From positions 24,896 through 88,895 of IMG/VR virus record IMGVR_UViG_3300029951_000013: a stretch of DNA of 64,000 nt. The stretch is one strand, 5' to 3'. Shown in pieces: positions 7,482-64,000 of this stretch (its first letter is position 1; the number at the start of each line of letters is the position of its first letter). The notes beneath the pieces are model-generated. The model did not search any database, was not told the DNA's origin, and was given only the letters and a program-made list of their open reading frames with translations. The translations under genes and the position numbers were made by a program. The DNA is from a virus.

Positions 7482-10400
7482 TCACGGCCCCGTCAGGGAC
7501 CGCAGGCGGCCCTTTTGCTTGGCGGCCTGGAGTGCGCTGATCATCCAGTTCTCCAGCTCCTGCTGGCTGCCGATGGGCCCGTGGAAGTGGAAGTTGTAGG
7601 TGTCTCCGCCGCCCGCCGACTCGCCGGGGCCGACGACCCGCTCCGGCTTGCCGGTGCCGTTGTGGGCCACCGTCGTGCCGGGCATGAGCCAGCCGCCCTT
7701 GTCGTACCAGTTGTCGGCGACCTCGTGGGACCAGGCCGCCGCCGGACTGCCGTACCGCTGGGCGATGTAGTCCTCGCCCCAGGCGACCTGGGCCTTGTAG
7801 TCTCCGAGTGCGTACGGGTGGCCGTGGCCGAGCGCCTGGGGGATTCCGTAGGCTCCTGAGCTGGCGTTCACCGCATTGGGGTTCCACCCGCTCTCCTGGT
7901 TCCAGAGCTTGATCAGCGGGCCCATCTGGTTGGACCCCCAGCCGTGGCCGGCCAGCAGGCTCTGTGCGAACTGCTGGATGGGGCCCACGGCGGTCCCGGA
8001 GAAGCCTCCGGAGTTGGTCGTCATCGCCGCGTACAGCGAGGACGCACTGGTCTGCGCGAGCTGGGAGACGGCCGACAGGACGGCTGCGCTGATCTGGGTG
8101 GCCGTGGGGCGTGCCACACGGACGTCGAAGCCGCCGACCGGGCCGCCGGCGGCGAAGGCGGGCAGTGTCCCGGCCACGGCCGCGCCGCGCATGTTCGCCA
8201 CGGCTCCGTGGCCGCCCGCCGACTGCACCTCGGCAGCCGTCCACATGTGCTCTCCGTTGGAGCCCAGCATCACCACGCTGTCCGAGGTGGCCGTACCGGG
8301 GCCGCGCACGGGGCCGCCGCCGGCCAGCCCGGGCAGGCCCTTCTTGCCGGTGTTCGCCGCGGCGGCGAAGTCCACCGACGCGGTGAAGGTCTTGTTCCGG
8401 ATCCCGCCCATGGAGGCGTTCACATCGTTCTTGAACGAGTTGATCGCCGCCGCCGCCGTCTTCAGCTTCCCGCCCAGGCCGGGCACCCAGCCGAAGGCGT
8501 CTGCGGCCCCCTTGACGATGACCTCGGCCACCTCCAGCCACAGGTCGATGATGAAGTTGAAGTACGGCTCCAGGACTTTCGACCACATGAACTTGGCGGC
8601 GGTCTCAATTCCTGAGAAGGTATCCTCGACTATCGAGCGGAAGGTCTGGCTGTGCTCCCAGGCCTCGTAGAAGCCGACCCCCAGGGCGACCAGTGCGATG
8701 ACCACAAGTCCGATGGGGTTGGCGTCCAGGACTACGTCCAGTGCGCCCTGCGCGATCGACAGCGCCCCGGTAGCGATAGTGGCGACTCCCTGGGCCCCTG
8801 CGAGGACAAGCGTCTTTGCAGCAGCCAGAGCCGTTCCGTCAGCCAGGGCGGTCATCGCTCCGGCGAGGCCCTCCCAGATAGCGATCCCGATAAGGCGGAC
8901 CCGGAGCACCAGCAGGCTGTCGTTGAACAGGTACGTCTTAACCGCGGCCAGGGCAGTCCCGTCGGCCACGGCGGTCACGGCCCCGGCGATGCCGTCCCAC
9001 ACGGCCATCGTGATCAGCCGGCCGCGCAGGACGAGCAGGCTGTCATCGAAGAGGTACGTCTTCACGGCGGCCAGAGCGGTGCCGTCGGCCAGGTTGGTGA
9101 CCGCGGTGGTGATCCCGTCCCACACGGATACCGCGATCAGCCTGCCGCGCAGAACGACCATGGAGTTGCCCAGGTTGAACACCGCGGTGGAGATGCCGTC
9201 CCAGACGGCCATGCCGATCAGCCGGCCGCGCAGGACGAGCATCGTGTTGCCCAGATTGGTGACCGCAGTGGTGATCCCGTCCCACACTGCGATGGCGATG
9301 AGCTTGCCGCGCAGCACGAACATGCTGTCGCCTACGCCGCCGACCACACCGGCGAGGTACGTCCATGCGGCAGAGACGGTCCCGCGCAGTTTCGTCGCTC
9401 CGGAGGACAGGCTGTCACTGATGATCAGCCATCGGAGGTACATCGTGTCCATCACGCCCTGGACCGCGGCTACCCCGCCCTGGATCCCGGACCAGATGAG
9501 GGCGGACTGCTGGAACGGGAACTTGACGATGCTGACAGCCAGACTGGTGATCGCCATGATTGGCTTGATCACCGCGAGAGCGGTCAGCCGGACTTCCAGC
9601 GGGATGAGGGCCAGTTCGACAAAGTTGTCGATTGCACCCTTGTTGGTGTCGATGAACTGCGACAGGTGCACCAGGGCCGGTCCGAGTGTGTTCGCCAGGA
9701 TCCCGGCGATGCTCTCGATGGCCTGGAACCCGGTGCCTCCCAGGTAGAGCAGCACGGGGGTGGCGGCGACCGACAGGTTGGTGAATGCGGTGCCTACGTC
9801 CTGGGCTGCGGTCGCGAAGTCCAGGAGGATCTTCTGGGTCTGGGAGCCGAAGGACTTCCCCAGCTGATCCGCTATGGACGTACTGGTCAGCGGCATCCCG
9901 GACAGGCCCCCGGCCAGCGGCAGTCCGACCGGGGCCTTGGCCGAGGACAGGTCCGTGTTGGTGGGGGCCTTCGGTGCCAGGTTCGAGCTGAAGGTCCCGA
10001 ACAGGGTGTTGGGGTCGACCAGGGCGGCTGCCTTCGCCTTGGTCTGCGTCAGGCTGCCGATGAAGCCGTTCAGGAACCCCTCAGCGACGTGCGTGTCCTG
10101 CTCCAGCTGACTGACCGGGATCAGGTTGCTCAGGTCCGAGGTGAAACGGGCCAGCAGGGGGAGGCCGGACTCGTTGACGAACGAGAAGAACTGGGTGGTG
10201 ACCGGGATCAGCTTCTCGCCGATCGAGATGGCCGCCGACTGGACGTTGCTCTCGAAGATCTTGATCTGCGCCGACATGGTCGCCTGCTGCGCGGCCTCGG
10301 CGGCAGCCAGGTTGCCCGACGTTGACTGGATCTGCACCAGTTTCTTCTGGAGGGTCGAGTAGTTGTTGACCATCGTCAGGATGGCCGAACTCGACCGACC

Positions 10401-11261
10401 GCCGCCGAACGCCTTGCTCAGCAGGATGGCCTGCTGGGACAGCGACAGGCCCGACTTGTCCAGGGCCGTCTTCAGCAGGCCGATGGTGCCGACCAGGCCC
10501 GCCGGGGAGCGCATCTCGTTGGCCAGCTGGAGGCCCGTCAGGCCGATCGTGGCCAGCTGCTTGGACGCGACGGAGGACGGGGCCGCCAGCAGGGACAGGC
10601 TCATCTTGAGCCTGGTGGCCGCGTCGGTGGCCGGGACGCCCTCGTCCGTCATCAGCGCGAGGGACGCGCCGATCTGGGACAGGCTCACGCCGAACGTCTT
10701 GGCGGCGGGCAGGATCCCGGTGCCGATGGCGGAGACGAAATCCGTCATCTTCATGTTGCCCGCGCCGATGATGGCGTTGACAGTCCCGGCAGCCATGGCG
10801 AAGGTCTGCGCCCCGGCGATGCCCGAACGCCAGGCCCCGGCCAGTGCGTTGGTCGTGGCCTCCAGGTTGCTGCCGCCGACCGCCGCCAGGTCGGACGCCT
10901 GCTTCAGGTCGACCATCGCCTGGGTGTTGTCCAGGCCCACGGACTTGAGGTGGTACAGCGCCTCGGCGAGCTGGTCGGGCCCCTGCTGGACGTCCTTCAT
11001 GCCGAGCACAGCGGTGGTCAGCGTCTTGACGTCCTTGGCGGACCCGCCTGCCTGGGTCTGGATCGTCTTCATGACGTTGTTGAAGGTGTTCGCCATCACC
11101 ACGGTGGTGGCCGCCGCGGCGCCGAGCGCCAGGACACCGACGGCCGCCCCGGCGGCGACTTTGCCGAACCCGCCCAGGGACTCCTCCGCGGCGGCGGTGT
11201 CGGCCGTCATGGTGATGTACCCCATGCCGAGCAGCGTGCCGCGCCCGATGCTAAGCGCCAC
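7482..11261 (-). CDS. Tape measure protein with C-terminal lytic transglycosylase domain
   Basis: 1259 aa, Ala/Gly-rich, TP901-type core, GPGTATSDSV motif, QESGWNPNAVNASSGAYGIPQAL. Confidence 0.95.
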   Translation of the reverse strand: MALSIGRGTLLGMGYITMTADTAAAEESLGGFGKVAAGAAVGVLALGAAAATTVVMANTFNNVMKTIQTQAGGSAKDVKTLTTAVLGMKDVQQGPDQLAEALYHLKSVGLDNTQAMVDLKQASDLAAVGGSNLEATTNALAGAWRSGIAGAQTFAMAAGTVNAIIGAGNMKMTDFVSAIGTGILPAAKTFGVSLSQIGASLALMTDEGVPATDAATRLKMSLSLLAAPSSVASKQLATIGLTGLQLANEMRSPAGLVGTIGLLKTALDKSGLSLSQQAILLSKAFGGGRSSSAILTMVNNYSTLQKKLVQIQSTSGNLAAAEAAQQATMSAQIKIFESNVQSAAISIGEKLIPVTTQFFSFVNESGLPLLARFTSDLSNLIPVSQLEQDTHVAEGFLNGFIGSLTQTKAKAAALVDPNTLFGTFSSNLAPKAPTNTDLSSAKAPVGLPLAGGLSGMPLTSTSIADQLGKSFGSQTQKILLDFATAAQDVGTAFTNLSVAATPVLLYLGGTGFQAIESIAGILANTLGPALVHLSQFIDTNKGAIDNFVELALIPLEVRLTALAVIKPIMAITSLAVSIVKFPFQQSALIWSGIQGGVAAVQGVMDTMYLRWLIISDSLSSGATKLRGTVSAAWTYLAGVVGGVGDSMFVLRGKLIAIAVWDGITTAVTNLGNTMLVLRGRLIGMAVWDGISTAVFNLGNSMVVLRGRLIAVSVWDGITTAVTNLADGTALAAVKTYLFDDSLLVLRGRLITMAVWDGIAGAVTAVADGTALAAVKTYLFNDSLLVLRVRLIGIAIWEGLAGAMTALADGTALAAAKTLVLAGAQGVATIATGALSIAQGALDVVLDANPIGLVVIALVALGVGFYEAWEHSQTFRSIVEDTFSGIETAAKFMWSKVLEPYFNFIIDLWLEVAEVIVKGAADAFGWVPGLGGKLKTAAAAINSFKNDVNASMGGIRNKTFTASVDFAAAANTGKKGLPGLAGGGPVRGPGTATSDSVVMLGSNGEHMWTAAEVQSAGGHGAVANMRGAAVAGTLPAFAAGGPVGGFDVRVARPTATQISAAVLSAVSQLAQTSASSLYAAMTTNSGGFSGTAVGPIQQFAQSLLAGHGWGSNQMGPLIKLWNQESGWNPNAVNASSGAYGIPQALGHGHPYALGDYKAQVAWGEDYIAQRYGSPAAAWSHEVADNWYDKGGWLMPGTTVAHNGTGKPERVVGPGESAGGGDTYNFHFHGPIGSQQELENWMISALQAAKQKGRLRSLTGP
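8800..9325 (-). repeat. Tandem coding repeats in tape measure (about 27-aa then 41-aa units)
   Basis: LRGRLI..VWDGI..AV recurs six times at about 81-bp and 123-bp spacing. Confidence 0.8.
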
Positions 11262-25400: not shown

Positions 25401-25737
25401 TGACTTGGTCCTGGTCGCCGGGGTACTGGTGCAGGGCGGCGATGATGTTCTGCTGCACTTCGGGCGGGAACGCCGAGGCGTCACCGCCGAGGAACATCAG
25501 CGTGCAGTGCAGCTCAGCCGCCACCTCGCCGCCCTTGACCGCGAGCCGCTTGGCATCGGCTGGAGTCGGCATCAGTGCGATCATGGCCCCGGAATGGGCG
25601 TCCGCGCCGGCGTCGGACGCCAGCATCCGGCGGCCGTGGGCGGACTGTACGTGGTGGCCGCGCTGATGGAGCTGCTCGACCACCGGCTGGCCGTCCCGGG
25701 TGCCGATACGCAATCGGGACGGTGTTCCCTCAGACAT
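22420..25737 (-). CDS. Fusion of 2H phosphoesterase, MuF-like head protein and capsid maturation protease
   Basis: LHCTLMFLG and WVAHICAAY (2H); ILDDRTCQPC..CLGGGNCRG (MuF); EGVTTGDGR, RGVSID, ATLCDIPAF (protease). Confidence 0.85.
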   Translation of the reverse strand: MSEGTPSRLRIGTRDGQPVVEQLHQRGHHVQSAHGRRMLASDAGADAHSGAMIALMPTPADAKRLAVKGGEVAAELHCTLMFLGGDASAFPPEVQQNIIAALHQYPGDQDQVTTKVFGIGHWNGDSPGASWVWNVGDNPDADAADCPLDDFHQLAAMAVQDALMLHQQRGGDPVPLPDQHSPWVAHICAAYTDDLSLASTLEAKLGPVTFDRIRVSFGNEDTDIPLTASLAATGTAITAAAKPKRAKRPDEFRRLPNATELAARVDFAAHQRSWQQAVNGALTDWQAVTADWRTQIKDQILAGGTDALSTLSITTDTAADTLYGRMRTTAQAAGVAQQQEAEQQGVHVPPWSLEPGRVAALAGLDLLRQVASIAADTMGNRLVQAAKHRAMGLFSVLSGIRLASEVELALQGLSDAFDKQWLGEAMSAAQNAGRIAVLEAAPPATYYATEILDDRTCQPCQSVDGKAFNSLDDAEDAYPGGGYADCLGGGNCRGTIYAVWDQGMLASAEEGTPVTTVVEEELGGKPNKGTAKDKRLSKNKPDGSTAPSGMSDSGGAPCAECPDDAAHFGSSNTVSDAPWDGSPSNFTPVQYKTASAACDPGNGTPEEECFLPHHDPDGELNRAGLAAAAGRFSSLTGHSPAAVAAAKSHLVAHYNAIKEPVPDNLKAAAATGAPAIQPAPVIAPGGPTAPWSGVLAVEGVTTGDGREFAPDALTWQDPPIPLRWNIQDSHGGEPRTVAVNVGRIDTIQRVGNQIQATGVLDLSDPNGVAARDKIAGRFVRGVSIDADSIGDADIEMVWPERNNEGDDEEDIFAMLFAQPEKVIFHGGQIRAATLCDIPAFKDAYIQLTDADTGAVVAGGAMDPAEWEAAQVEEPDETGAVTASLGVYTPPAEWFADPGLSVPTPITVSDSGRIYGHAAQWGTCHIGQTGQCVQPPREDYHAYYMTGEVGLDDGTTASVGQITVGTGHASLNVGAQAAKEHYDHTGWAVADVVVGNDVHGIWVAGSIRADADAGKVAALRAAGQVSGDWRRIGGKLRLVGLLAVNVPGFPVPRMRARVSAGAQVALVAAGQPTVAPGVAGPSEHDLDQMAMRRVLEMLAKRVKADA

Positions 25738-27595
25738 GAGCGCGGCCGTTCACCCGGCTGTGCGGAGTGACCAGGGTGGACTCCATGGCCGTCGTGTCCA
25801 GATACGGCGACAGGCCGTCCAGGCGCACGCGGCCGAAGGCGTCCAGGTGGCACAGGTAGGTGCCGGGCGTTCCGGGGATCGCCGCCGGGGCGTCCTGCAT
25901 CACCGCCTCGGTGAAGGGGCACGAATAGGAGTGGTCCCGGCAGACATCGGGGTGCCGCAGGTCCCAGCGTCCGTCCAGCCGGAACAGCACCGCGTGCTGG
26001 ACCTTCCCCTGCCGCACCCGCCGCGCCAACTCCGGGTTGACCGCCGCCGCTTGGGTCGGCGGCCCTGCGGCGGGAGCCGGGGCAGCGGGCACCGTCGGTC
26101 CGGCGGGCGGCGTGTGCTCGTCCGGCTCGCCGGTCTGGCCGGGGGCCGGGATGACGCCCTGGATCTCCTGCGCCGCGCCCGGGCCGGAGGTGGCCGGGGT
26201 GACCAGCTCGGTGCCGGTCAGGACGTCCAGCGCACCGGGGGCCGCGCCGTGCGCGAGCCGGATCAGGGATTTGAGGCCCTGGTCCCGCAGATCCTGCGGA
26301 GTCGGTGCGTCGTCCTCGCTCATACCGATCTCGCGCCGGTACGCCTGCCCGCTCAATTCCAGCCGGTCGTAGGCGTTCTGAGCGTTGATGCTCTTGTCCG
26401 GACGGAGTGTCAGCTCGGACAGGTCGTACCAGACGACGATGCTGGGGTCGGTCACGCCAGCGGCTGCCAGCAGGGGCTGGAGGTAGCCTGTGGTCAGTGC
26501 GGCGCAGATGATCTCAGCCAGCGGAGCTATGTGGACCTTGAGTCCGGACTCCTCGACGGCCCACGCCGACCAGTGGTTACTGTCGCCCAGGCCGAGCATG
26601 ACGTCCGAGGGGATGTCGAGCTGGGTGGCCACGCGGCGTATCGCCTGATCCCGCTTGTTGATCACCTGGTCGTCTATCTTGAGGGTGAAATCCAAGTGCT
26701 GGACGTCCTTGACCCACTCCGCCGGTACCCGCAGCGGGATCGGGATCACAGCGGATGCGGTTCCCGGCGTCTTGATCGCCTCGGCGGCGACCGTGATCCA
26801 CTCCTCCATGAAGGGGTCTTCGGCGTCGGCGAACTCCTCGCGCGCCGGGAAGGACACCTCCTCCGGCAGGATCAGTACTCCCGCTGAGGCGAGGCGGCTC
26901 AGGTACTGTGCCGTGATGTGCCGGTTGACCAGCTCCAGCTCCCGCATGGCGGTCAGCGCGGACCGGGCTGGGCTGGTGGCTAGGTGGTAGAAGCGGTCGT
27001 GTGGACGCCACACCCGGATCGGGACCATGGAGTCCTCGGCCAGGGGCCGCCAGACCGTCCCCAGGTTCGGGTTGTTCTCGTCGGTGACCTCGTAGCCAGT
27101 CCGCCCGGTCACCGCGCCCACCGCGCGGACCTCGTCCACCGCGCGCACCTGCCAACGGTAGAGGCCGTTGACCTTCTCGCCGATCAGGTACCCCTCGCCG
27201 GGGACCGAGAGCTGGACCGTGAGCCGCTTCATGATCTCGGACCGGCCGCCGATGCCGTTGCCGAGCTGCTGGATCAGGTCGGCGGCCGGTCCGGTGTCCA
27301 GGACGGTGGGCTCGTCGTTGCCGGGCTCCATCTGGCCCGCCCGGAGCCGTACCCGGGACAGCATGTTGGCCAGCCAGCTCACCCCGTAGTTGAACTCCCC
27401 CAGGGTGTCGAAGTACCCCCACACCTCGTTCTGCCAGCGGTCGGTGTGGCGCATGAACTGGGCGGAAGGCCCGGCGGCCGGGACGGCGGCGGCGGTGACC
27501 GCGGACGGTTCGGCTGCGGCGGTCAGAGACGCGGGCTCAAGCCCGGCCTCGTCGGGCAGCATCCGCCGGTACCCGACGTTGTGGTACCAGGCCAT
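25730..27595 (-). CDS. Portal protein
   Basis: GGAGG before ATG 27595; SRLASAGVL, NHWSAW, WYDLSELTLRPD; upstream of the protease. Confidence 0.9.
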   Translation of the reverse strand: MAWYHNVGYRRMLPDEAGLEPASLTAAAEPSAVTAAAVPAAGPSAQFMRHTDRWQNEVWGYFDTLGEFNYGVSWLANMLSRVRLRAGQMEPGNDEPTVLDTGPAADLIQQLGNGIGGRSEIMKRLTVQLSVPGEGYLIGEKVNGLYRWQVRAVDEVRAVGAVTGRTGYEVTDENNPNLGTVWRPLAEDSMVPIRVWRPHDRFYHLATSPARSALTAMRELELVNRHITAQYLSRLASAGVLILPEEVSFPAREEFADAEDPFMEEWITVAAEAIKTPGTASAVIPIPLRVPAEWVKDVQHLDFTLKIDDQVINKRDQAIRRVATQLDIPSDVMLGLGDSNHWSAWAVEESGLKVHIAPLAEIICAALTTGYLQPLLAAAGVTDPSIVVWYDLSELTLRPDKSINAQNAYDRLELSGQAYRREIGMSEDDAPTPQDLRDQGLKSLIRLAHGAAPGALDVLTGTELVTPATSGPGAAQEIQGVIPAPGQTGEPDEHTPPAGPTVPAAPAPAAGPPTQAAAVNPELARRVRQGKVQHAVLFRLDGRWDLRHPDVCRDHSYSCPFTEAVMQDAPAAIPGTPGTYLCHLDAFGRVRLDGLSPYLDTTAMESTLVTPHSRVNGRAHV

Positions 27596-27808
27596 AGCAC
27601 TGTCCTCCCGCCGGTCCGGTTGGGCCCAAGGTACCGCCGGTTCCGGGGGCGATCGTCCCGGGCGCGATAGCGGCACCGCAGTCCCGGTCCGGCGCTGCGC
27701 TTGCCCGGGTACTGGGCGATCCACCAGACTCAGGGCAGTGCCCTTCCTGCACTGGCTCGGAATCGGGATGACAGGGCGGGACCACCGTGTTGGCGCACGG
27801 CCCGCCGG

Positions 27809-27841
27809 GAGCCGGCACCCCTGCAAGGGTGCCGGCTCTTT
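27809..27841 (+). terminator. Intrinsic terminator-like hairpin
   Basis: GAGCCGGCACCC-ctgcaa-GGGTGCCGGCTC followed by TTT. Confidence 0.6.
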
Positions 27842-27852
27842 CCGTAGGCGTC

Positions 27853-27880
27853 GCTCTCGATAATCTGCCTTATCGAGAGC
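27853..27880. other. Candidate tyrosine-recombinase crossover site (lox/dif-like, 11-6-11)
   Basis: GCTCTCGATAA-tctgcc-TTATCGAGAGC, perfect arms, ending 53 bp before the recombinase ATG. Confidence 0.8.
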
Positions 27881-27933
27881 CAGAATCAGCGTGTTTCTGC
27901 GATTCGATCAATCAGACCTGAGACAATCAGGTC

Positions 27934-28938
27934 ATGACACCAGGCGAACTGACCCTCTTCGGATCATCAGATCACGCGCAGGCCCTGGCAGACCGGGCTC
28001 TGTCCGACCGGACGCGCGACCGCCTGGAGCGGTCGGTGCCGGAGAACACCCGGCGAGCCTACGCCCGGCAGTGGACCCAGTTCGCGAACTGGTGCGCGGC
28101 GCAGGGCCGTACCGACCTCCCGGCCACCGGGCACACCCTGGCCGAGTACACCGGCCACCTCGCCGACCTCGACCGGGCGCCCGCGACGATCGAGCAGGCG
28201 ATCGCCGCCGTCCGCACCGCGCACCGCACCGCCGGGTACCGCCAGCAGCCGGACACCTGTGACGCCCTGGCCGTCCTCAAGGTCCACAAACAGGACCGGG
28301 CGGAAGCCGGCAAGCGGAAGCGGAAGGCGCCCCCGGTCACCCTGGAGCCGCTGCGCGCCATGGTCGAAACTACCGACCCGGGCACCCTCGCCGGGAAGCG
28401 GGACCGCGCGCTGCTCGTCCTCGGCTTCGCCATGATGGCCCGCCGCTCCGAGCTGGCCGTTCTGCGCATCGCCGACATCAGGTTCACCGATGACGGGCTC
28501 ACCGTCACCGTGCGGGCCAGCAAGACCGACCAGGACGCCGAAGGCGTCGAGGTCAACATCCCGGCCGGCGTTCACCCCGACACCGACCCCGTCCGGGTGG
28601 TCCGGGCGTGGCTGGCCGCCCTGGCCGGACTCGGGGTGACCGGGGGATCGCTGCTGCGCAGCGTCGACCGCTGGGGACGGCTCGGTGCGAGCATGACCGG
28701 CGAGGCCGTCAACGAGGCAGTACAGCGGCGGGCCGCTACGGCGGGTCTGGAGGACGCCGGGGCCTACAGCGCCCACGGCCTGCGGGCGGGCGGGCCCACC
28801 GAGGCCGCCCGGGCCGGGCACCCGGTCAGCTTTATCGCCGAGCACGGCCGCTGGTCCAAATCGTCGCCGGTGGTGTACGAGTACGTCCGCGCGGTAGACA
28901 AGTGGCGGGACAACCCGATGCGCGGGATCGGTCTCTGA
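27934..28938 (+). CDS. Tyrosine recombinase, Cre-like (core-binding plus catalytic domain)
   Basis: ENTRRAY, RRSEL, SKTDQ, HGLRAG, HGRW, YVR. Confidence 0.93.
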   Translation: MTPGELTLFGSSDHAQALADRALSDRTRDRLERSVPENTRRAYARQWTQFANWCAAQGRTDLPATGHTLAEYTGHLADLDRAPATIEQAIAAVRTAHRTAGYRQQPDTCDALAVLKVHKQDRAEAGKRKRKAPPVTLEPLRAMVETTDPGTLAGKRDRALLVLGFAMMARRSELAVLRIADIRFTDDGLTVTVRASKTDQDAEGVEVNIPAGVHPDTDPVRVVRAWLAALAGLGVTGGSLLRSVDRWGRLGASMTGEAVNEAVQRRAATAGLEDAGAYSAHGLRAGGPTEAARAGHPVSFIAEHGRWSKSSPVVYEYVRAVDKWRDNPMRGIGL

Positions 28939-28986
28939 CTGTCAGCTCCTCCTGACATCCTGAACCCGTTCTTCGAACCGCATGAA

Positions 28987-29544
28987 GTGGAGACAGACCT
29001 GATGGACGACGAACCGCGCGGTGCCCGTACCCACGCCATCCCATTGCCGCAGGCCCGGCAGGTCAAACGGGCGATCAACTCCCTGGACCTCGGCCTGGAG
29101 GTGCGCAGGCCGCCCGGCACGGTCCACCCGATGGGTGATCGCGGCGAAGCGGCGCAGTACCTCGGGATGCTGAAAGCCGTCGTGGCCCAGATGGAGTACG
29201 GCCTGCGGGGCGGCCCGCTCCAGAACGACGTGCAGAAGGGCTGGTTCCAGGGTTTCGACCGGGAGACGCCGCCCATCCTGGCGAACATCGCCTCGCAGGT
29301 ACGGGAGTTGTCCGCGTTCGCCCGACAGGGCATCCTCCAGGTCCCGCACGCCTCGCAGCAGATGGGCGTCGCCGCTGCGGCTCTTCTGGCTGCGGCTCAC
29401 GCGTTCGCCGCTGCCGCCGAGATCGCGGTGGGCCTCGACTCACCGAACTTCGATGAGAACAAGGTGGTCAGGCAATCCGAGCAGATGTACGAGGCGTTCA
29501 GTGTGCTCGCCGAGTACGTGGCCCAGAAGATGGACGGCCTCTGA
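28987..29544 (+). CDS. Hypothetical helical protein
   Basis: 185-aa ORF with coding-like codon use; start may be ATG 29002. Confidence 0.7.
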   Translation: METDLMDDEPRGARTHAIPLPQARQVKRAINSLDLGLEVRRPPGTVHPMGDRGEAAQYLGMLKAVVAQMEYGLRGGPLQNDVQKGWFQGFDRETPPILANIASQVRELSAFARQGILQVPHASQQMGVAAAALLAAAHAFAAAAEIAVGLDSPNFDENKVVRQSEQMYEAFSVLAEYVAQKMDGL

Positions 29545-29550
29545 CCGGGG

Positions 29551-29838
29551 CTATTCCCGGGTGCCGACAGACTGCAACGCCGCGCGGTGCGCGTCCTGGA
29601 CGTCCCGCGCGGTGAGCCTGTCGTCCGGGTGGTGCTTGCGGCAGACCGTATGGCCGCCGGCTGTGGTGTGGCGGCCGAGCCGCCAGCAGCCGTGGACCTC
29701 GCAGTTGTGCTTGCGCAGGACCATCAGCAGACCGCCGATGATGGTGATCTCGCCGAGGTCCGAGCCGATACCGGACCAGAACGAGTAGGCGTGCCCGGCG
29801 GCATTGGTGATGCCGAACCAGATCAGGAGTCCGTGCAC
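29551..29838 (-). CDS. Small membrane protein with Cys/His tail
   Basis: TM segment, then HNCEVHGCWR and CRKHH. Confidence 0.7.
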   Translation of the reverse strand: MHGLLIWFGITNAAGHAYSFWSGIGSDLGEITIIGGLLMVLRKHNCEVHGCWRLGRHTTAGGHTVCRKHHPDDRLTARDVQDAHRAALQSVGTRE

Positions 29839-34331: not shown

Positions 34332-36704
34332 CTAGCCGATGGCCCGGGAGGCAGCCTTGCTGCCGAGGCCGGACCGGCCGGTACCCCTGGAAGTGGTGTG
34401 CACCAGTTTCTGCCCCCAGGCGTTCCAGACGCTGTTGTGCACCAGGATCCCGTTGGCGAAGAACTCCGGAACTTCCTCCACCGTCAGGTCATAGACCGGC
34501 CGCCTTCCTACGGGCTCGGAGATGCGCTCCACAGGAGTTGGAGCAAGTCGCGGGCACGGGCCGGTACTTGCTCTGCATGAACCCGGCGCCGCAGACGGGG
34601 CATTCAGCAGGCACCCTGTACCGGTCAGCCCGGTCGGACATACGCCGGTTGCAGGCTCGGGAGCAGTGCCGCGACTCTCCGGCATGCCGGGTCGAGTAGG
34701 TCTTTCCGCAAGCCTCGCAGGCCGAAGTGCGGGCCTCCCGGTTCGCGTAGCTGGCAGTAGCCTGCTGGGAATGCCAGGTCCGGCCTTCGTCACTCCGGTG
34801 CCAGTCCACGGCGAGGCCCCGGATAGCGTCCAGGTGGGCCAGCCACTCGGCGCTTCCCCGGTCGAAGTCTCCGGGATGTATCCGGGAATGCTCAAGGCGG
34901 GTGACGCACTGGAGGTTGGACGGGTCGTTGTTGAGAGGATCGAAGTCGACGTGATGGATGACGCAGCCGCGAGGTACACCGCTCGCTCCGTGAGCCGCCT
35001 TCCACACCTCGGTATGGAGTTGACCGACGCCCCGAAGCCGTTTCCCGTCGGCGTAAGCGGTGTAGTAGACCCGGGCCGACCTGTGTCCAGATGCCGGATT
35101 CCGGCTGTAGGTGATGCCGTTGAAGACCACGGACTCCTTCTCGGATGCCATGCCCCCAGTCTATCGCCCCAGACTATGGCGTCCAGTCTTACGAACCCTT
35201 TGCCGAGCACCCAGACCCGATGGTTGGCCGTCCCGGTAAGGGGGCCCGCAGGGGTGTCCACGCGGATGACCTCCTCGCTGGAGGACGTCATCCAGGAGCG
35301 CAGAACGCGCCGCCAGCCCTGTCGCGTCATTACCTGGTCGTCCGTAGTCACCGCTTCGATCGGGACCGGCCCCCGGCGGGTGGTGACCAGGGTCCCCGCT
35401 ACAAGGCAGGCGTCCAAGTGGTCCGGAGACCAGTCGAGTTCGGGGTACCAGGTGGTCATCTGATCTTCCAAAACTTCGAAGACGCCGGCATGCCTCCAAT
35501 ACCCCTGTGAGGTCAGAGCGCTGACAGGCTGCGCCCGGATCGCCTTGCCCCGGGTGGCCGTCACGATCCGGATGGGGATGTTCACCCCCATGGCCTCGGC
35601 GGCCGTCCGGAGAGTCGAGACGCACATGGCCCCGCCGTAGTTGGTCTCCACGAAGATCTCGTCCGCGTTCCAGTCCACGGCCGCACTGACCGCCTTCCGG
35701 CCCCACCCGTCCGGAGACAGGTGGCAGCTCCGGTCGTCCAGGACGAAGCCCTGGTGGCGGGCCCTGGACGGAGGGAGCGTCAGACCTTCCTCAACGGGCA
35801 TCACCGGAGGCAGTAGCAACCTCTTCGACTTGCCTACCACGATGATCCCCTGCTCCCCGGCTCCACCTGACGGGTCTACTCCGATCGAGATGCGGCCGAG
35901 ATCCGGGACCGACCCTGCGTCGATGCGGGCGGCATCAATCGTGGACCGCTTCCACAGGGCGTTCTCGTCCTCGTCAATCACCAGGCCCAGGAGTTCCTGC
36001 CGACCGAGTTGCGTCCCGCCGTACGCGTCCTCCAGTGCTTCCCTGATCGACAGCGGCAAGTGCGGGTTGTCGTACATGGACGCCCGCGTAACGACGGTGT
36101 CCCGGATGCCGTTCGCTGCCAGTTTCCGGATCAGGTCCCGGGGCTTGGGTGTGGTGGACCCGACCCAGTGCGGGTGCGGCCCGGCGCGCAAGCCGAACCT
36201 CATGTGGTCCCAGGCGTCCGCCAGGTACCGCCAGGCAGCTAGCTCCTCAGCCCAAACAGAGCACCGGTTCCCGCCAGAGCGGAGGCGCTCCACGTCATCG
36301 GCACTGTTGGCGCCGAACAGCTTGGCCTCGGAACCGTTCGGCCAGATCACGGTGAGCCCGCCGGGCCGCTGCACCATCCGGGCCGTCGGGTCGTGGGCGC
36401 GTATTCCGGACGGCCCTGCGAAGCAGGATGTGGCGGCATCGCCCAAGGTCGGCGCGATGATGCCGACCCAGTGCGGGACGGGGCCGGGCAGGCATGCGGG
36501 GCCCTTGACGTGCTCCACGATGTGGTTGGCGCAGACGTCCGTCTTCCCGGCACCGCGTCCGGCGAGCAGCAGCCAGCCGTACCAGTCCCCCGGCGGGGTC
36601 ACCTGGTGCGGCAGCGGGGTCCAACGCGGCGAGCGCAGCTCGGCGACCCGCTGGGCCAGCAGGTCGGCCGCCTTGCGGGCGACTATCTCAGCGTCACCGG
36701 GCAT
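34332..36704 (-). CDS. terL: Terminase large subunit containing a 325-aa intein
   Basis: AGRGAGKT Walker A, WAEE Walker B, TTP, GVDPS, ETNYGG, SPDHLDA/SVW. Confidence 0.95.
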   Translation of the reverse strand: MPGDAEIVARKAADLLAQRVAELRSPRWTPLPHQVTPPGDWYGWLLLAGRGAGKTDVCANHIVEHVKGPACLPGPVPHWVGIIAPTLGDAATSCFAGPSGIRAHDPTARMVQRPGGLTVIWPNGSEAKLFGANSADDVERLRSGGNRCSVWAEELAAWRYLADAWDHMRFGLRAGPHPHWVGSTTPKPRDLIRKLAANGIRDTVVTRASMYDNPHLPLSIREALEDAYGGTQLGRQELLGLVIDEDENALWKRSTIDAARIDAGSVPDLGRISIGVDPSGGAGEQGIIVVGKSKRLLLPPVMPVEEGLTLPPSRARHQGFVLDDRSCHLSPDGWGRKAVSAAVDWNADEIFVETNYGGAMCVSTLRTAAEAMGVNIPIRIVTATRGKAIRAQPVSALTSQGYWRHAGVFEVLEDQMTTWYPELDWSPDHLDACLVAGTLVTTRRGPVPIEAVTTDDQVMTRQGWRRVLRSWMTSSSEEVIRVDTPAGPLTGTANHRVWVLGKGFVRLDAIVWGDRLGAWHPRRSPWSSTASPTAGIRHLDTGRPGSTTPLTPTGNGFGASVNSIPRCGRRLTERAVYLAAASSITSTSILSTTTRPTSSASPALSIPGYIPETSTGEAPSGWPTWTLSGASPWTGTGVTKAGPGIPSRLLPATRTGRPALRPARLAERPTRPGMPESRGTAPEPATGVCPTGLTGTGCLLNAPSAAPGSCRASTGPCPRLAPTPVERISEPVGRRPVYDLTVEEVPEFFANGILVHNSVWNAWGQKLVHTTSRGTGRSGLGSKAASRAIG
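34489..35151 (-). CDS. HNH homing endonuclease nested out of frame inside the intein
   Basis: LHTEVW, IHHVDFDPLNNDPSNL, EHSRIH; two C-terminal CxxC..CSxxC zinc fingers. Confidence 0.9.
   Translation of the reverse strand: MASEKESVVFNGITYSRNPASGHRSARVYYTAYADGKRLRGVGQLHTEVWKAAHGASGVPRGCVIHHVDFDPLNNDPSNLQCVTRLEHSRIHPGDFDRGSAEWLAHLDAIRGLAVDWHRSDEGRTWHSQQATASYANREARTSACEACGKTYSTRHAGESRHCSRACNRRMSDRADRYRVPAECPVCGAGFMQSKYRPVPATCSNSCGAHLRARRKAAGL
35158..35163 (-). promoter_or_regulatory. -10 box for leaderless transcription of the nested HNH
   Basis: TAGACT-gggggc-ATG. Confidence 0.55.
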
Positions 36705-62956: not shown

Positions 62957-63223
62957 ATGACCACTGACCAGAATCCGACCACTGAGACCGAAGAGAACCG
63001 CATCCGGCGCATCGTTCGGCAGGAGATGCGCAACAACCTGGGTCCGCGCATGCGCCGCATCGCGCGAGAGGAGATCATCGCGACCTTGGCCGACATGTTC
63101 GATCACGCGCCGTCGGGATCTGAGGTCGAAGCCGTCGTCAAGGCAGCGCGAACGCTCGCCGACCAGCGACGCAAGGCGGAGATGACCACGCAGGGATCGA
63201 GGCTGGCCGATGACCAGCGCTGA
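62957..63223 (+). CDS. Hypothetical protein
   Basis: MTTDQ start; RRIVRQE / RRIAREE internal repeat. Confidence 0.6.
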   Translation: MTTDQNPTTETEENRIRRIVRQEMRNNLGPRMRRIAREEIIATLADMFDHAPSGSEVEAVVKAARTLADQRRKAEMTTQGSRLADDQR

Positions 63224-64000
63224 CGACTTCCTGCGCCTGGGTCAGCCCTACGACGCCACCGCGCCCGGCCCGTGGTTCCCTGCTCGCCACTCCGGAGAGT
63301 GCGGCACCTGCTTCATGGAGTTCGAGGAGGGCGACACGATCCGTGCCGATGGCGAGGGCGGATGGGAGGCGCAGGACCACGGGCACGAGGACGAGAGCGG
63401 GCAGGCCGCGCCGCGCGTCCAGGTGTTGGAGCCTGTCCCGACCGCGCCAGGAGAACAGAACGACCGCACACCCGACCACCGGCCAGAGGACGAGAACGTG
63501 AACGATGATGCGCAGAGCGAGTTGGACCAGGCCGAGGAGCGGTCGGCCGTGATGGAGTCGGACGGGAAGGTACGGTGCCCGGCGTGCCTGCGCGACTTCG
63601 CGCCCGTCAAGGGCGGAGGTGTCCGGGGGCACAAGCCCGCGCCCGATGACACGGTGTCACAGGGGAAGTACAGATGCGCGGGCGGCAAGGGCGGCGCTTA
63701 CCTGCCCGGCTGCGGACCGCTGACACCGGCACAGAAGATGGAGGCGCGCATCGCCGCCGGGCCTCAGCCGGGCCCGAACCCGCACCGGGTGCCGCTGCCG
63801 ACCATCGGCCCCTCTAGGGAGCTGACACAGGCCGCAGTTGAGGCGTTGCAGTGCCGGACGCCCGAGCAGAAAGCGGCCACGGCCGCGCGCATGGACGCTG
63901 TCGCCTCGGCGGTGCTGGGCCTGCCACTCGACGCGGGCAACCCGGTAGCGGAGGCCGTTGCCGACCTGCCCGTCGGGGCTCAGGTCGAGGTCGGTGGCCA
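63210..64000 (+). CDS. Large protein with zinc-finger segments, 3'-truncated by the window edge
   Basis: ATG 63210 open to the end; CGTC, CPAC..H..C. Confidence 0.65.
   Translation, partial: MTSADDFLRLGQPYDATAPGPWFPARHSGECGTCFMEFEEGDTIRADGEGGWEAQDHGHEDESGQAAPRVQVLEPVPTAPGEQNDRTPDHRPEDENVNDDAQSELDQAEERSAVMESDGKVRCPACLRDFAPVKGGGVRGHKPAPDDTVSQGKYRCAGGKGGAYLPGCGPLTPAQKMEARIAAGPQPGPNPHRVPLPTIGPSRELTQAAVEALQCRTPEQKAATAARMDAVASAVLGLPLDAGNPVAEAVADLPVGAQVEVGG

Follow-up and report, generated by a model that had tools for sequence, protein, structure and literature searches.

The stretch of DNA analysed here (the window) comprises 64,000 nucleotides and corresponds to bases 24896–88895 of the 88,895-bp virus record IMGVR_UViG_3300029951_000013, which has a GC content of 69%; positions refer to the window unless stated otherwise. 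On its plus strand, positions 27934–28938 encode P0001, a tyrosine recombinase of the Cre/MrpA type with 334 amino acids (Pfam PF00589, 31.9 bits, above the cut-off). Upstream of the gene lies a predicted mrpS-like recombination site (27849–27884, plus strand). Its core at 27853–27880 is a perfect 11-6-11 palindrome, consisting of GCTCTCGATAA (27853–27863), the centre tctgcc (27864–27869), and TTATCGAGAGC (27870–27880), with both arms perfect. The core ends 53 bp before the recombinase ATG. Judged by sequence, enzyme and site belong to the MrpA/mrpS family and do not constitute a new mechanism. The module probably resolves multimers of a circular, plasmid-state phage genome.

The catalytic residues of P0001 are R171, K197, H281, R284, W307, and Y317, which align with the catalytic set of Cre. 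Specifically, the tryptophan of the HGRW motif is aligned with W315 of Cre, and the R-K-H-R-W-Y set shows no variation in an alignment of 28 homologues. A sequence search of the Protein Data Bank (PDB) yielded 17 distinct matches at E ≤0.01, every one of them Cre or Tre, an evolved Cre variant. Their E-values range from 2.6e-17 to 1.8e-15, and residues 22–323 of the query align with residues 32–336 of Cre. No Xer or lambda Int chain is found among the PDB sequence matches at E up to 0.01. In silico modelling with AlphaFold2 gave a structure with a mean pLDDT of 78 and a pTM of 0.64, in which the 38 C-terminal residues (297–334) are of low confidence. When this model was compared with known structures using Foldseek, Cre and Tre ranked first (E 1.2e-11, TM 0.55–0.6), ahead of XerA/XerD (about 1e-5) and lambda Int (about 1e-4). 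The sequence identity between P0001 and Cre is about 22–23%. In Pfam, the Phage_integrase domain passes its cut-off, and the SAM-like N-terminal domain falls narrowly short of its own. Both the alignments and the predicted fold thus indicate a Cre-like enzyme with the Cre-type two-domain fold, the complete R-K-H-R-W-Y set, and no arm-binding domain. A lambda-type integrase build was rejected, as P0001 aligns end to end with residues 32–336 of Cre and the site is a simple palindrome.

The inner geometry of the palindrome, ATAA-N6-TTAT, is also that of XerC/XerD-dif and single-Xer systems, which share with the phage module the role of dimer resolution, putative in the phage. P0001 differs from the enzymes of these systems in failing the XerC and XerD models. 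The NCBIfam equivalog scores are 45.8 bits for XerD (cut-off 329.6) and 37.2 bits for XerC (cut-off 335.15), with only the N-terminal half aligning, and membership of either family was rejected on these scores. No Xer protein appears among the PDB sequence matches, and the phage site is carried by the element itself and not by the host.

Perfect inverted repeats with arms of at least 11 nt and spacers of 0–12 nt occur in the window in nine registers, six of them distinct, compared with a mean of 0.83 in 30 Markov-1 simulations. With the spacer restricted to 6 nt, two were observed against 0.07 expected. Among the perfect inverted repeats of the window, the recombinase-proximal site is the sole AT-rich one, its arms having a GC content of 45% in a genome of 69%. 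Beyond the core, the right arm reaches the outer CAGA that is characteristic of the family. The left outer four nucleotides are CGTC, compared with TCTG in the family, so that the site attains its full length only in the gene-proximal arm.

These results bear out in full what an earlier note on this DNA, drawn up from the letters alone, had observed, and in part what it had concluded. It had described a perfect 11-6-11 palindrome with ATAA-N6-TTAT geometry and an asymmetric spacer, which lies exactly at 27853–27880. Furthermore, it had described a Cre-type enzyme with the HGRW tryptophan and no arm-binding domain, on which the PDB search, Foldseek, and the alignment to W315 agree. Its placement of the gene antisense between terL and portal was corroborated by Pfam and the coordinates, and the AATCAG triplet, the GACCTGA/TCAGGTC repeat at the ATG, and the upstream hairpin that it listed were all recovered by position and folding. 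A second site, for which the note had proposed a search, was not found in the genome: neither arm has a further copy at ≤1 mismatch, and the site is single.

The characterised relative of the phage module is MrpA/mrpS of the Streptomyces plasmid SCP2. The gene SCP2.07c is located about 1 kb from parA and is the only PF00589 gene of SCP2. As the plasmid's only tyrosine recombinase, its product is taken as MrpA. P0001 is 39.4% identical to this protein over 94% of its own length (residues 20–334). The palindrome TCTGGCTCTTGATAA-cgttcc-TTCTCTAGAGCCAGA ends 17 bp before SCP2.07c (L004 2835–2870) and presumably represents mrpS. MrpA is described as resolving plasmid multimers (PMC3218068, citing Warth et al. 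2011). In addition, mrpS was cloned as an oligonucleotide pair, and MrpA then multimerises the resulting plasmid in E. coli, according to the relevant passages of PMC4685060. A mutational analysis of mrpS from 2013 (Warth and Altenbuchner) appears in the reference list of PMC6486577.

The phage and SCP2 modules have in common a homologous protein, a single-gene organisation, a site directly upstream of the gene, and the same site geometry. The inner left arms, GCTCTCGATAA in the phage and GCTCTTGATAA in SCP2, are one base apart, and the outer CAGA on the right is common to both. They differ in location, as the phage pair is situated between terL and portal of a tailed phage, while that of SCP2 lies beside parA on a 31-kb plasmid. 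The spacers are also different (tctgcc and cgttcc), and in the phage the inner arms are perfect whereas the left outer arm is degenerate. Finally, recombination at the cloned site has been reported for the SCP2 pair, whereas the phage pair is known from sequence alone.

Homologues of P0001 are numerous, with 1,944 proteins at E 1e-10 or better among 8,000 candidates scored. The best 120 are 61–100% identical, and the named ones among them come from Streptomyces, Kitasatospora, Streptacidiphilus, and allies. For the analysis of the sites, 75 homologous loci (L006–L080) were collected from viral and genome collections and 67 of them were scanned. The eight loci dropped were L060, with too little upstream DNA, and L072, L073, and L076–L080, which are truncated or partial matches. 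A site was defined as an 11-6-11 palindrome with ≤2 mismatches and TAA/TTA beside the centre, located in the range of -500 to +30 around the projected start. Such a site is present upstream of the recombinase at 34 of the 67 loci, and four such palindromes occur in the remaining 1,172,487 bases of the same loci. The consensus of the family is (T)TCTG-NNNNN-CGATAA-N6-TTATCG-NNNNN-CAGA(A). Five variable positions set the arm classes, which include ACCCTC, GGTTGC, GGTCGC, GCTTGC, ACTTTC, and GCTCTC. The centres are related across the family (roughly C-N-T-G-N-C) and are found in both orientations with respect to the gene. The IMG/VR relative L007, whose protein is 64% identical, carries a 15-6-15 version of the site.

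The two arms change together. Mirrored changes were found at 11 of the 15 arm positions, with the pairing rate of the inner 11 nt inflated by their having been chosen for palindromy. The outer four positions, which played no part in choosing the sites, still pair, namely in 20, 28, 34, and 29 of 35 distinct rows. Compared with the closest clade (ACCCTCGATAA; proteins 64–75% identical), the phage arm shows two differences, both of which are mirrored. As position and geometry are kept upstream of homologues and the arms co-vary, the palindrome is very probably the cognate site of P0001. The suggestion of the earlier note that it is the lox-like partner of the enzyme is thereby strengthened.

The co-variation has a second possible source, as an operator bound by a dimer would give the same symmetric pattern. 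The palindrome could accordingly act in transcription control alone, by the recombinase or another regulator, with no recombination taking place. Its proximity to the ATG, 53 bp here and 1–21 bp in the closest clade, fits this proposal. However, all six catalytic residues are invariant throughout the family, the asymmetric 6-bp centre between an invariant A and T suits a crossover region, and the SCP2 homologue is described as recombining a short cloned site (PMC4685060). A purely regulatory palindrome is therefore considered very improbable.

The surroundings of the cassette vary among the loci. When the open reading frames (ORFs) at the loci were clustered, the sole widely common family was the recombinase, present at 60 loci. 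The next largest family was found at nine loci of a single clade. A tblastn comparison of the ORFs of the phage genome with the loci likewise recovered little besides the recombinase. A conserved partner gene was rejected, as no neighbour is common beyond single clades. From these comparisons, only gene and site appear to be conserved across contexts, forming a self-contained cassette.

Four distant homologues in Planobispora and Planomonospora (L053, L056, L059, and L075) have a different upstream palindrome, GATCGCGGAGA-aggcga-TCACCGCGACC, about 390–710 bp upstream, and also clade-specific neighbours.

The following scheme is proposed for the phage module. Recombinase monomers would bind the two inverted arms of the 28–36-bp site that closely precedes the gene encoding them. 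A pair of such sites would synapse, and strand exchange would take place across the asymmetric 6-bp centre tctgcc, with neither an accessory protein nor an arm-type site being required. Where a circular replicon holds just one site, this reaction would matter only after homologous recombination or replication has made a dimer. The dimer would carry two direct sites and would be resolved to monomers, which would keep the plasmid-state prophage heritable. As the site lies so close to the ATG, its binding probably also represses transcription of the recombinase gene itself. In this scheme, catalysis at the site, the resolution role, autoregulation, and the plasmid state of this element are proposed. 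What was observed is the class of the enzyme, a site that is conserved, keeps its position, and co-varies symmetrically, the homology of both enzyme and site to those of SCP2, the presence of one site in the genome, and a syntenic plasmid relative.

This last relative is pS1D4-14.2, a plasmid of a cultured Streptomyces. It is 98.8 kb in size and its record is labelled linear, with no terminal inverted or direct repeat found in it. Homologues of 32 of the 88 called ORFs of the phage genome are present on pS1D4-14.2 in synteny, and its annotated portal is 56% identical to that of the phage. The plasmid encodes ParA, a ParB-family gene, and a P4-type primase, together with a TraB-like protein that is 41% identical to its phage counterpart. 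The latter is a 675-aa protein encoded at 8549–10576 of the phage record (L082). It was recognised as TraB-like through tblastn matches to annotated Streptomyces TraB or FtsK/SpoIIIE genes, with 26–28% identity over 95–96% of its length, and also matches PHROG 24831. Pfam found nothing in this protein or in a second early protein of 782 aa. The phage genome also encodes a family-A polymerase, a D5-type primase, a helicase, a GH25 lysin, and a holin. Given the TraB-like gene and the maintenance of the syntenic pS1D4-14.2 as a plasmid, a plasmid-type lifestyle of the prophage is plausible, as had been suggested previously.

Several observations weigh against multimer resolution in a plasmid-type prophage, in addition to the selection of the inner arms for palindromy. 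No site was found by the same definition at 33 of the 67 loci. The phage genome contains no ParA homologue and no match to PF02195 (ParB_N) or PF13614 (AAA_31). The tyrosine recombinase of pS1D4-14.2 is not homologous to P0001 (E 0.17) and has no mrpS-like site nearby. Five related phage contigs, which are 15–66% complete, contain no tyrosine recombinase. Furthermore, homologous cassettes occur in chromosomes as well; the one in a Streptomyces chromosome (L014, described below) is next to tail and lysin genes, a setting in which the resolution of dimers would serve no evident purpose.

The recombinase could instead be the integrase of the phage. The palindrome would then serve as a simple attP and recombine with a similar site on a chromosome or plasmid, leading to an integrated prophage or a cointegrate. 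Across the full 88,895-bp record, PF00589 matches P0001 alone, and no serine recombinase (PF00239) was found there, in line with the earlier statement that a classical integrase is absent. The protein thus is the sole recombinase in the genome. It is assigned by PHROGs to phrog_1, integrases (E 6.9e-12), and MrpA is described as performing intermolecular recombination in E. coli as well (PMC4685060). P0001 lacks an arm-binding domain, however, and searches for a target were negative. With the arms fixed and the centre free, the phage site was found in 0/5 genomes carrying the closest homologues (≤3 mismatches) and in 0/401 genomes of the family of G001 (≤2 mismatches). Within this sample of genomes, which need not include the true host, targeting of a host dif or attB, the former of which had been suggested, found no support and was rejected. 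The exact phage site has no match in the viral contig collection. No tRNA adjoins the gene in the 19 closest loci, the three tRNAs found lying 5–10 kb away.

Outside the phage, identical arms were detected on a single element, in a metagenome scan. Three contigs of this element (L091 7775–7802, L092 3435–3462, and L093 2261–2288) have the same 11-nt arms around the centre CAAATG in an intergenic position, with a GC content of 56–60%. The neighbours scanned encode phosphoketolase, BON, PepSY, and response-regulator proteins, and no homologue of any of the 88 phage ORFs, including the recombinase, is present on these contigs (tblastn, E up to 1e-5). Given the different spacer and GC content, the missing recombinase, and the ordinary chromosomal context, this palindrome was treated as unrelated, and it argues against integration as well.

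The L014 homologue, which is 67% identical to P0001, bears on integration from both sides. It is located at about 8.36 Mb in an arm of a completely sequenced Streptomyces chromosome of 8.70 Mb. Tail proteins are followed there by an amidase, the site, the recombinase, an HTH protein, and a host-type kinase, which places the cassette at the end of a prophage-like block and fits an integrase. However, the full site is intact and single in this genome, and its 16-nt core is also single at ≤2 mismatches, so that the site does not mark the junctions of the block or flank the element. Integration via the site in the L014 genome was rejected for this reason. Overall, integration by P0001 is regarded as unlikely, and dimer resolution remains the preferred function.

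The position of the cassette invites a further proposal. The portal gene (25730–27595, minus strand) is divergent from the recombinase gene and matches Pfam Phage_portal at E 1.5e-7, below the curated cut-off. On the other side lies terL with an intein-like insert (34332–36704, minus strand), with matches to Terminase_6N (E 1.1e-13) and Terminase_6C and weaker ones to Hint_2 and Intein_splicing. The recombinase gene is thus antisense within the late operon that starts with terL. In pS1D4-14.2, the tyrosine recombinase (L084 6056–7156) is antisense in the same slot. The slot is therefore conserved and its occupant is not, which looks like non-orthologous replacement at a fixed position. The homologue of Microcystis phage Mwe-JY05 (49% identical) is also just upstream of a portal gene. 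Its site, CACCGTTGATAA-tgtttc-TTATCAACGGTG, is a 12-6-12 palindrome of the form ...TGATAA-N6-TTATCA..., intergenic and about 520 bp upstream of the gene. P1 Cre/loxP cyclises terminally redundant DNA. By analogy, the phage enzyme might close incoming DNA with terminal redundancy into circles or act on the products of replication, a role compatible with dimer resolution and suggested by the location in the packaging region. In ZL12-type elements and L014, however, the cassette follows the lysis genes. In addition, the related record L095 (portal 51% identical; record 15% complete) lacks a tyrosine recombinase in its 12.8 kb, which extend 3.9 kb upstream of the portal gene. As the main role of the enzyme, such a function in the infection cycle is considered rather doubtful.

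Cre/loxP of P1 gives the best PDB sequence and fold matches, shares the R-K-H-R-W-Y set including the Cre-type tryptophan, and likewise combines an enzyme lacking an arm-binding domain with a palindromic site that has an asymmetric centre. Furthermore, the element carrying the phage pair is, like P1, probably a phage-plasmid. Besides the low protein identity, the difference lies in the site, which is 11-6-11 or 15-6-15 in the phage and 13-8-13, with a length of 34 bp, in loxP. As the bases flanking the phage centre are an invariant A and T, a 14-8-14 reading is also possible. In one published search for pairs of the Cre type, only spacers of 8 bp qualified, and Streptomyces, MrpA, and Actinobacteria are not mentioned in its main text (PMC10250229).

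A second relative on a phage-plasmid is found in pZL12 of Streptomyces. ZL12 is described as a phage-plasmid (PMC4487206), and the integrase/recombinase pZL12.36c is 33% identical to P0001. Copies that are 42–43% identical occur on circular Streptomyces plasmids of about 88–93 kb, one of which, NZ_CP109510.1, has the ZL12 gene order around the recombinase. A degenerate site, GGTTCGCGATAA-gctcac-ATATCGCCAGGC, is located about 20 bp before the ZL12 gene. The phage backbone is a different one, and the cassette is positioned after the lysis genes.

With the phage pair, a family whose prototype is already in use as a genetic tool gains a further candidate enzyme and site. No new kind of mechanism is opened, as MrpA/mrpS has been characterised on SCP2. 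The novelty of the pair was overstated in the earlier note, given the characterisation of the prototype and its use as a tool described in PMC3218068 and PMC4685060. The many arm classes could yield orthogonal recombinases for high-GC actinomycetes. The pair also supports the notion of an 88-kb soil actinomycete phage with a TraB-like gene living as a plasmid-type prophage and not integrating. In a wider and speculative view, held to be improbable, the cassette would go beyond plasmid housekeeping and act on incoming or packaged DNA from its recombinase slot, and the family would amount to a natural set of mutually orthogonal recombinase/site pairs. The slot may belong to the packaging module of phage-plasmids that bear TraB and form a conjugative lineage, in which different tyrosine recombinases filled it independently. 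The actinomycete family, with at least six arm classes that all have a 6-bp centre, may have been excluded by design from published Cre-type screens.

Downstream of the recombinase gene and on the same strand lies an ORF of 185 aa (28987–29544; 180 aa from the ATG at 29002), for which Pfam, NCBIfam, and PHROG searches gave nothing. Its counterpart in pS1D4-14.2, with 69% identity, is oppositely oriented relative to terL/portal there. The ORF is not present at other homologous recombinase loci and lies outside the conserved cassette; it may be co-transcribed with the recombinase.

The phage record is classed as linear in the collection, with a CheckV completeness of 100%. At its right end (63106–64000 of the window), an ORF is open to the end of the contig. 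Over its first 204 aa, this ORF is 71% identical to the N-terminal part of the product of the first gene, located at 1–895 of the genome. Bases 1–491 of the record match bases 88001–88488 at 91.6%. This suggests either that the map is circular, with the assembly running through a polymorphic stretch, or that the contig stops within a tandem paralogue.

Further features surround the site. Between the start of the portal gene and the site lies a GC-rich stem-loop (27809–27838, no strand assigned) with arms of 15 nt that are 93% complementary. Its folding energy is -36.1 kcal/mol on the plus strand and -37.6 kcal/mol on the minus strand, with a z-score of about -5. The stem-loop is likely a terminator or insulator, the insulating role being putative. 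A scan for sigma-70-like promoters in 27400–29700 returned no site, a result that is uninformative for an actinomycete. Between the site and the start codon, the plus strand contains three copies of AATCAG at 27884, 27910, and 27925 (span 27884–27930), the first of which overlaps the outer right arm of the site (CAGAAT). The motif occurs 10 times on both strands of the whole window, compared with 8.39 expected, and is therefore unusual only as a local cluster of three in 47 bp. Finally, a 7-5-7 inverted repeat on the plus strand (27915–27933), formed by GACCTGA (27915–27921) and TCAGGTC (27927–27933), abuts the ATG at 27934. As RNA it folds with -12.9 kcal/mol (z -3.2), and it possibly represents an mRNA hairpin or a second protein-binding site.

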